From Schmidtea nova (taxonomy: Eukaryota): 52,739 nucleotides of DNA. The notes below the pieces were generated by a model. It had not been told where the DNA came from and ran no database searches. It saw only the letters and a program-made list of their open reading frames with translations. The position numbers were made by a program, and so were the translations under genes. The stretch spans positions 320,485,786 to 320,538,524 of the forward strand of contig CM097882.1 of assembly GCA_044892505.1 (NCBI GenBank), written 5' to 3'. Shown here piece by piece: positions 7,090-7,818 of the stretch. How positions within the stretch are numbered: the stretch's first letter is position 1; every line of letters begins with the position of its first letter.

Positions 7090-7528
7090 ATGAATAATTT
7101 ATTGAATCAAGGACGAGTTGCTCGAAAATCATACGGAGCTGGAGTCAATGGTAAATTTACTTTTTATTTATTTACTTATTTATTTTTAATATTATTAGAA
7201 GTTAATATAGCGAACAATATCGCGAGCAATATCTTAAATAACAACGGATCTGTCATTGGGACTGGAGTCATTGGAACTGGAGTCATCGGAAATAGATTCA
7301 ATGGTATATTTACTTTTATTATTGTTAATTTTAATTGACAATAATATTTAGAAATTAATAATGTAATAAATTACGGTCAAACTGATGCTCAAATTACTGC
7401 TGGTTCTCGTTTTTATGCCCGGAATGCAGCTGGTTCTACTTGCAATGGATCAAATTTTAATGCTGCTGGATTAACGATTGGATTGAAAAAATGTAAATAT
7501 TTTGATGATTTTTTATATTATATCTAAG
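7090..7528 (+). CDS. Putative multi-exon Gly/Asn/Ala-rich Polinton protein (exons 7090-7150, 7199-7303, 7352-7492 onward)
   Basis: Codon-like blocks alternate with two 48 bp GT..AG, T-rich, phase-1 segments (7151-7198, 7304-7351). Removing the second one removes the stop at 7336-7338. Confidence 0.6.
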
Positions 7529-7818
7529 AAAATATATTATTAAATATATTATTATTTTATAATATTAGAAATGATAATATTATTAAAAAACAATAATAAT
7601 ATTTTTAAAATTTTATGAATTTTATGAAAATTAAATGCGTTATGAATTTTAAGAAGTAAAAGTAAATATTTTATTATTTTATAATAATAATATTAGAAAT
7701 GATAATATTATTATAAAACAATAATAATATTTTAAACATTTATGAATTTATTAAAGAAGAAATGATTTATATATTTTATGAAAATGATTTATTTATGACC
7801 ATTATTTTTATGAAGAAG

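Follow-up and report, generated by a model that had tools for sequence, protein, structure and literature searches.

Putative spliced mini-exons upstream of the polymerase gene in a decayed Polinton of Schmidtea nova

The Polinton copy and its surroundings

The window analysed, a 52,739-nucleotide stretch of Schmidtea nova DNA, comprises (i) a decayed Polinton that occupies the first 12 kb, with all genes on the + strand, and (ii) eukaryotic DNA, likewise rich in AT, that contains a tubulin gene as well as hAT and reverse-transcriptase elements. The element was assigned to the Polintons by Pfam matches to a family B polymerase, an integrase, a packaging ATPase and an adenain-type protease (Table 1), genes shared with animal Polintons/Mavericks (adintoviruses); the score of the integrase chromodomain lies under the curated Pfam cut-off. 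For 4469-5689, a candidate for the double jelly-roll major capsid protein by its size and position, searches of Pfam and of PDB sequences returned no significant match, and a minor capsid gene, also without Pfam match, is presumed from its position. The copy is dead: its 3166 codons include 9 internal stops, and the polymerase gene, interrupted by stops at 8560, 9601 and 10274, also carries two frameshifts, near 10080 and 11153. Its left and right ends display no similarity to each other; both adjoin N gaps, and the left end may fall outside the window. A 195-nt gap (6605-6799) parts the capsid module from the mini-exon unit, which lies together with the polymerase in one gap-free stretch (6800-12232).

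Additional features accompany these genes. A small basic protein is encoded before the capsid gene (4092-4472), with three adenain-type sites and an Arg/Lys-rich tail, much like an adenovirus core precursor; an unbroken ORF of 138 aa with Cys/His motifs (6163-6579) has no Pfam or PHROG match. Five Polinton genes have a TATAAA word (at 759, 1404, 4427, 5721 and 6125) 32-42 nt ahead of their ATG, which suggests that most genes have a promoter of their own and a very short 5' UTR. Downstream of the polymerase, a 121-nt tandem repeat and four TGACGTCA words occupy 12631-13220, and the segment 13313-13530 recurs at 28623-28840, beyond a second polymerase fragment; this recurrence and the repeats suggest that the region may be the right end of the element. 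The host tubulin gene is divergent, runs on the minus strand (14455-29968) and is split by a ~14.1-kb intron (29754-15630), which contains an hAT transposase and the second, more decayed Polinton polymerase fragment (~23640-25225). Further along, the segment 31100-33980 contains a degenerate AT-rich repeat array and, after it, a frame for a RING finger (33782-33976; Pfam zf-C3HC4_3, E=4e-10). Long inverted-repeat pairs, 83-98% complementary, at 47172-47670/51923-52424, 20057-22235 and 45169-46141 probably mark non-autonomous DNA transposons.

Table 1. Genes, exons, introns and candidate signals of the Polinton, positions counted from the first nucleotide of the window
Feature	Position	Strand	Description
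A32-like packaging ATPase		+	Pfam Pox_A32, E=1.4e-6
Retrovirus-like integrase		+	Pfam rve, E=1.7e-8
Putative integrase intron	2424..2466	+	43 nt, phase-1 GT..AG, two codons after the second catalytic Asp
Adenain-type protease		+	Pfam Peptidase_C5, E=6.7e-5
Putative protease start exon	5753..5757	+	ATG and 2 nt
Putative protease intron	5758..5795	+	38 nt, GTAAGT..TAG, joins ATG 5753 to the protease frame
Candidate core promoter	7019-7025, 7046-7051	+	TATATAG and initiator-like TCACTT, from sequence and motif scan
Exon 1, coding part (predicted)	7090..7150	+	ATG, 20 codons and 1 nt, GC 38%
Intron 1 (predicted)	7151..7198	+	48 nt, phase 1, GC 8%; stop-free if retained
Exon 2 (predicted)	7199..7303	+	105 nt, symmetric phase 1-1; 15-nt tandem repeat at 7252-7296
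Intron 2 (predicted)	7304..7351	+	48 nt, phase 1, GC 12%; two in-frame stops; branch-point-like TTGAC near the 3' end
Exon 3 (predicted)	7352..7492	+	141 nt, symmetric phase 1-1, GC 34%
Candidate intron 3	7493..8134	+	642 nt, GTAAAT..TAG, the whole AT-rich block; rival: 3' UTR and polymerase promoter
Rival polymerase 5' end	8030..8134	+	TATAAT 8035, ATG 8072, donor AAG/GTAAAT 8081, 54-nt block to the acceptor at 8134
Coding stretch upstream of ATG 8191	8135..8190	+	C-x4-H-x2-C; homologue of the inter-finger linker in polymerase relatives with tandem zinc fingers
Polymerase gene	8191..12138	+	C2H2-type finger, Asn-rich and acidic spacer, QVGCG site 8674, conserved body
Protein-primed family B polymerase		+	Pfam DNA_pol_B_2, E=3e-8

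Mini-exons and short introns

The mini-exon unit lies in front of the polymerase region and comprises three predicted exons with a GC content of 34-38%, separated by two 48-nt blocks with a GC content of 8% and 12%. Recomputation bears out the arrangement given in the preliminary description: the blocks at 7151-7198 and 7304-7351 have the same length, GT..AG ends, phase 1 and G/AA junction codons; the whole codons of the three exons, read from ATG 7090, translate to the peptide pieces given there; intron 1 is stop-free in frame and hence compatible with read-through; and a third phase-1 donor, GTAAAT, is located at 7493, from which the AGs at 7528 and 7568 give T/AA. Intron 1 has additional in-frame AGs at 7201 and 7210, and intron 2 contains stops at 7337 and 7343. 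Both introns carry the hallmarks of the major spliceosomal class, including GT..AG ends, a GTA-type donor, a T-rich tract and a YAG acceptor, in a style equal to that of the host tubulin sites, and their removal yields one open frame, according to phase bookkeeping and shuffles. Donors 1-3 and the acceptor at 8134 are all in phase 1, so exons 2 and 3 could be skipped without loss of frame. The predicted peptide of ~100 residues contains 20% Asn and 15% Gly, and a single-sequence fold of exon 3 alone disclosed no ordered elements (pLDDT 62). The candidate core promoter was located by a scan with the consensus TATA and initiator motifs. Several GTCAC/GTGAC words and a 16-nt direct repeat, possibly factor-binding sites, precede it at 6800-6945.

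The two 48-nt GT..AG blocks are not a product of chance. Segmentation with a two-state composition model, for which training used sequence outside the unit, places the beginnings of AT blocks at 7152 and 7305, no more than 1 nt from the donors; the 3' edges, 7209 and 7373, lie 11 and 22 nt beyond the acceptors, an overshoot due to the Asn/Ile codons at the start of the exons. A filter for introns (GTA..TAG, length 36-60 nt, GC no higher than 15%, richer flanks), with settings chosen in view of the data, found two blocks in none of 2000 dinucleotide shuffles and one block in 11. All three exons are stop-free in the proposed frame in only 5 of 20000 nucleotide shuffles, and their codons fit the codon use of the element best in that frame compared with the other two, the introns scoring worst. 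From these sequence properties, the three exons are very probably spliced and coding. The preliminary description had read them as a small Polinton gene invisible to ORF finders: the spliced coding exons within the element, their absence from ORF predictions and a duplicated donor region stand, but the end of a stand-alone product at ~102 aa is not established.

It is most improbable that no real gene exists here and that the unit consists of GT and AG words in the AT-rich patches of a decayed copy, or reflects faulty scaffolding beside a gap. Such an origin would suit a dead and AT-rich copy, exon peptides without homologue, a gap 290 nt upstream of the unit and a filter tuned on the observation itself; nevertheless, it is hard to reconcile with the shuffles (two blocks in 0/2000, exons open in 5/20000), with a donor match of 19/20, with the absence of filter blocks on the minus strand of the element and the presence of only three on both strands of the other ~40 kb, or with the gap-free stretch that joins the unit to the polymerase.

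The two introns had also been described as similar to each other, as expected for a unit built by exon-intron duplication. This holds at the donors, where a 20-mer is identical at 19 of 20 positions, a score that does not exceed 15 of 20 at any of 1470 further GTA sites in the window, but not over the full length, with 29 of 48 identical positions versus 25.0 +/- 2.9 in shuffles (p=0.11; p=0.03 with gaps), and whole-intron similarity was accordingly rejected as proof of duplication. As for the duplication itself, ~20 nt at the donors and ~12 nt at the acceptors speak for it, but the exon bodies are unlike along the 153-nt diagonal, so that the putative duplication is visible at the splice sites and not in the exon bodies. 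The short introns of the element are mutually unrelated (p>0.19 in 9 of 10 pairs), save for the donor regions of introns 1 and 2, and no second copy of the introns or of the unit was found elsewhere in the window; the many near-identical full-length copies that characterize introners are therefore not seen in the window.

The exon peptides, searched as unjoined pieces or as the read-through including introns, queries less sensitive than the spliced product, returned no Pfam or PHROG family, no phage match and no usable ESM Atlas match, and the read-through found no homologue among 16 candidates. Two weak matches among 1.84 billion representatives (E 2.5e-5 and 7.7e-5) were rejected as long tandem-repeat proteins with pairwise scores of 25 and 12 bits.

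Beyond the mini-exon unit, the same filter detects only two other blocks on the + strand of the element and none on the minus strand. The 43-nt block in the integrase separates two segments, both with matches to integrase profiles, and puts them out of frame with each other if retained. Compared with solved integrases, the upstream segment shows a weak alignment with a retroviral integrase that extends as far as the second Asp (E 0.21), and the downstream segment gave no integrase match. The 38-nt block in the protease follows ATG 5753, the only in-frame ATG at the head of the protease frame. ORF finders split or truncate both genes. Two insertions with GT..AG ends, both needing removal to restore the frame, are hard to explain as decay and suggest that the active element relied on splicing. 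The Polinton lineage thus appears, judging from its gene structures, to use spliceosomal introns in core genes, and the integrase and protease introns, absent from the preliminary description, are the best internal evidence for splicing. The intronless state described for Polinton core genes (PMC8097293) does not appear to extend to the integrase and protease here, given their GT-AG blocks.

The 5' end of the polymerase gene

A search with the N-terminal region of the polymerase retrieved 11 full-length relatives with 24-46% identity. The C2H2-type finger, located here in 8137-8400 and without Pfam match, is present in six of them (P0004-P0006, P0010-P0012), three with one unit that starts at the equivalent of ATG 8191 and three with tandem units. 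The 18 codons before ATG 8191 resemble the linker of P0012, with 7 of 10 residues identical, a similarity matched by 0/5000 nucleotide shuffles and 1/5000 residue shuffles, in a relative only 39% identical outside the linker; the resemblance to the P0010 linker is weaker (p=0.003 and 0.06), and there is no match to the P0011 linker. The linker match argues that these codons were translated and need an upstream start. The four-ligand Cys/His motif occurs twice in P0012 and is absent in the other 10 relatives. In an AlphaFold model based on a 7-row alignment, the finger is well modelled, with pLDDT above 90 at residues 21-50, and one helix (residues 12-23) spans Met 8191, the first 10 residues having a pLDDT of 54. 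Foldseek with this model returned nothing at E<=0.001, the zinc-finger region alone as a query found no match among longer proteins, and its RING-like clusters in the ESM Atlas, under 0.9, were taken as a lead only.

The adenain-type site QVGCG at 8674 (8674-8688) lies just before the conserved polymerase body, and a [QLM]-x-G-x-G site is placed likewise in five of the 11 relatives (P0004, P0005, P0006, P0009, P0011), which suggests that the maturation protease may trim the polymerase precursor; the consensus, (M/I/L/Q/N)-x-G-G or -x-G-x-G, stems from adenovirus, as the available text of PMC4246237 gives it. The 4092 gene contains three adenain sites, the polymerase one at 8674 and the three exons none. 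The G-x-G motifs of the exons were considered as protease sites and rejected, with Ser or Val at P4 and 0/3 fitting the consensus, which removes one argument for a virion role of the peptide. A leader like exons 1-3 is found in none of the 11 relatives. A scan of a bacterial and archaeal genome set yielded 24 candidate stretches, of which three code for relatives of the polymerase, all lacking the 5' end, and the second polymerase fragment in the window also lacks this region; no polymerase match was found among phages. The three stretches (L001, L002:22-3167, L003:10001-10942) are Polinton-type polymerase fragments in bacterial genome bins; L002 is a low-GC stretch joined to high-GC DNA and L003 is AT-rich throughout, compositions that point to eukaryotic DNA in bacterial bins.

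The AG at 8134, which lies beyond the reach of the preliminary description, stands out as the candidate entry to the polymerase frame. Blind two-state segmentation delimits an AT block after exon 3, from 7482 to 8133, which ends at AG 8133-8134, and this AG displays the most pyrimidine-rich tract (14/18) of 34 AGs tested after 7493. Entry in phase 1 at 8134 opens 141 codons in the polymerase frame, whereas of the 16 AGs between 7493 and 8134, 10 give a stop at the junction and 6 a stop within 21 codons. The stop across the third junction, T/AA, noted in the preliminary description, is present at 7528 and 7568, but the same outcome at 10 of the 16 nearer AGs makes it unspecific, so it does not identify the real acceptor. 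The frame of the codons upstream of ATG 8191 closes at 8112 without an ATG, which, together with their apparent translation, argues for entry by splicing at 8134.

Among 32 GTs tested as donors for 8134, an in-frame ATG is reached without extra splicing from 7151 and 7304 (ATG 7090) and from the weak 7639; donor 7493 reaches ATG 7090 via the two short introns. The polymerase frame can consequently be reached in frame and without a stop from the leader ATG, by way of canonical sites. A phase-1 GTAA[AG]T so near the GC drop has a chance of 0.016, and the 7493/8134 junction codon encodes Cys, the first of the C-x4-C-x4-H-x2-C motif, the first spacing obtained by this join being x6 versus x4 in P0012. 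The interval also contains a read-through stop (7525-7527), proximal AGs at 7528, 7568 and 7696 and a duplication with a period of 128 nt. Folded as RNA, it gives z=-2.3 against 20 shuffles, a value put down to AT-rich repeats and discarded as evidence of structure; an Rfam scan of 6800-8300 returned no match.

The rival 5' end of the polymerase (Table 1) occupies the last part of the same interval. Its donor at 8081 would define a 54-nt intron of usual size, with a chance of 0.04 for GTAA[AG]T and 0.007 for AG/GTAA, and the spacing of 37 nt between its TATA-like word and ATG 8072 is shared by 5 of 8 other genes checked. An inverted repeat pair, TACGTAAT/ATTACGTA, lies within this region at 8040 and 8062. 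In this copy, ATG 8072 and the polymerase are in different phases; spliced 8081/8134, this ATG would open ~60 codons (8072-8080 and 8135-8308) with a hydrophobic end overlapping the polymerase start, possibly a chance frame. Recursive splicing at AG/GT 8080/8081, where the tract is poor, is remote.

Based on these gene models, the preferred reading, to which we give an even chance, is that the mini-exons encode, once spliced, a 5' leader for the polymerase precursor and perhaps a short product as well. Host RNA polymerase II would start near 7048, as the motifs suggest; the spliceosome would remove the two 48-nt introns, a step strongly indicated by the sequence; and donor 7493 would join acceptor 8134. 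The predicted precursor would then comprise (i) an Asn/Gly-rich, probably disordered leader of ~100 residues, (ii) the Cys/His motif, (iii) the C2H2-type finger and (iv) a terminal-protein/OTU/exonuclease/polymerase body. By the adenovirus consensus, the adenain-type protease would cut at QVGCG 8674 and free the leader and the fingers from the replicating enzyme, which would explain the tolerance of a freely varying, lineage-specific leader. More speculatively, nearer AGs or read-through at 7493 would end the frame after about 102-113 residues, and the choice of acceptor could set the ratio of short protein to polymerase, keeping the polymerase scarce. Against a leader stand the length of 642 nt, far above the other introns of the element (38-48 nt), and the 3 of 11 relatives that begin at the equivalent of ATG 8191.

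Alternatively, and as a real though minority possibility, the exons may form a stand-alone Polinton gene for an Asn/Gly-rich protein of ~102 aa (junction stop) or ~113 aa (read-through to 7527), perhaps a virion accessory, with the polymerase expressed from its own promoter near 8035 and spliced through the 54-nt intron at 8081-8134, placed either after a damaged short start exon or in a 5' UTR with the start at ATG 8191. The strong donor 8081, an intron size like the others and the same start-exon design in the protease gene are in line with this arrangement, but a join from 8081 would not give the first Cys. Damage in the copy elsewhere (9 stops in 3166 codons, 2 polymerase frameshifts) could account for ATG 8072 being out of phase, although it would have to strike a 9-nt target, 1-2% by our estimate from damage density. 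A start at 8191, the equivalent of which is used by 3 of 11 relatives, would leave untranslated 18 conserved codons that match a relative only 39% identical elsewhere. The TATA-like word at -37 from ATG 8072, accompanied by the inverted repeat with TACGTAAT arms, is of a kind common in such AT-rich DNA. AG 7568, with its T-rich tract, resembles acceptors 1 and 2, yet the T/AA that it creates arises at 10 of 16 AGs; moreover, 0/3 exon G-x-G motifs fit the adenain consensus expected of a virion protein. On the 3' connection, the mini-exons as polymerase leader are somewhat ahead of the stand-alone gene.

A host-derived cargo gene with introns, captured between the capsid module and the polymerase, is unlikely. 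Nematode Mavericks do carry intron-bearing cargo genes, according to the available text of 10.1101/2022.07.12.499685, the exon peptide has no viral homologue and the splice sites resemble those of the host tubulin gene; on the other hand, there is no cellular homologue either, exon codon use fits the element's own genes, better in the reading frame than in the other two, and the phase of the last donor matches that of the polymerase. In addition, core genes also hold introns, so introns are no mark of cargo. The weights given here to a polymerase leader, a stand-alone gene, host cargo and the absence of a gene are the authors' rough-likelihood estimates and not computed values.

Known splicing systems and significance for Polintons

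Compared to other animal Polintons, the element differs in the GT-AG introns of the integrase, the protease and the mini-exon unit and in a polymerase entered, as it seems, through an acceptor. As far as the available texts go, the genes of intact vertebrate Mavericks/Polintons are intronless (PMC8097293), a nematode Maverick combines intronless core genes with intron-bearing cargo (10.1101/2022.07.12.499685), and two surveys describe viral genes of this kind as free of introns (PMC9356565, PMC10120064). The passages available of PMC10748475, PMC8502044, PMC11296320 and 10.64898/2026.07.28.741278 mention no spliceosomal intron in a Polinton gene, and no report of short GT-AG introns in the integrase, protease or polymerase of animal Polintons was found in the titles, abstracts and passages surveyed, a set short of Repbase and the founding papers of 2006-2007.

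Introns of other kinds occur in related elements. Spliceosomal introns in dinoflagellate Polinton-like proviruses are introner insertions, as described in the available part of PMC11957031, that is, repeated transposon families mostly inserted after integration, whereas the short introns here are mutually unrelated save for donors 1 and 2. Cryptophyte Polinton-like viruses have group I introns in a short gene (PMC12220804, text available in part); these are self-splicing and 309-376 nt long, compared with GT-AG blocks of 38-48 nt here and no Rfam match in 6800-8300. The wasp and krma genes of the nematode Maverick are likewise intron-bearing genes inside a Maverick but, in the available description, full-size host-derived enzymes in the cargo region, whereas the present unit is low-complexity, without homologue and in phase with the polymerase.

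The closest functional parallel is found in adenovirus, where the gene for the terminal-protein precursor (pTP), in E2B, begins with a spliced start exon of 9 nt that lies upstream and is connected to the remainder over a long intron. The same start exon also serves the adenovirus polymerase. The adenovirus leader comprises three codons in one exon, whereas the Polinton leader would comprise ~100 codons in three exons; there is no sequence relation between the two, and the Polinton unit would work alike without being a member of the E2B group. In the available text, the annotation of HAdV-37 pTP joins 13495-13503 to 8325-10223 (PMC2397415, Table 1), adenovirus pTP is processed by the viral protease (PMC4246237), and E2B is treated in general passages (PMC7851563). 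In Polintons, the terminal protein and the polymerase form one polypeptide with the domain order terminal-protein/OTU/polymerase, according to the part available of 10.1101/2024.03.18.585575.

Tentatively, and with more doubt than confidence, the lineage may have moved as a whole to an adenovirus-like spliced programme, with one promoter at ~7020, acceptor choice between a short protein and the whole precursor, a modular phase-1 leader, and an integrase and a protease that also depend on the spliceosome. Such a programme could make the element switchable by the splicing state of the host and would be a present-day counterpart of the path by which adenoviruses acquired splicing in their replication genes. 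Dependence on the spliceosome would fix transcription in the nucleus and limit hosts to those that splice introns of 38-48 nt. Surveys of Polintons call genes with ORF finders that assume no introns, as the available passages of PMC10120064 and PMC9356565 indicate, and score interrupted genes as decay. If short GT-AG introns reside in the integrase, the protease and the polymerase 5' end, intact elements may be among the copies regarded as dead, and ORF finders would be overlooking small genes as well as true N-termini. A spliced polymerase leader would parallel adenovirus E2B and would bear on the origin of adenoviruses from Polinton-like ancestors.
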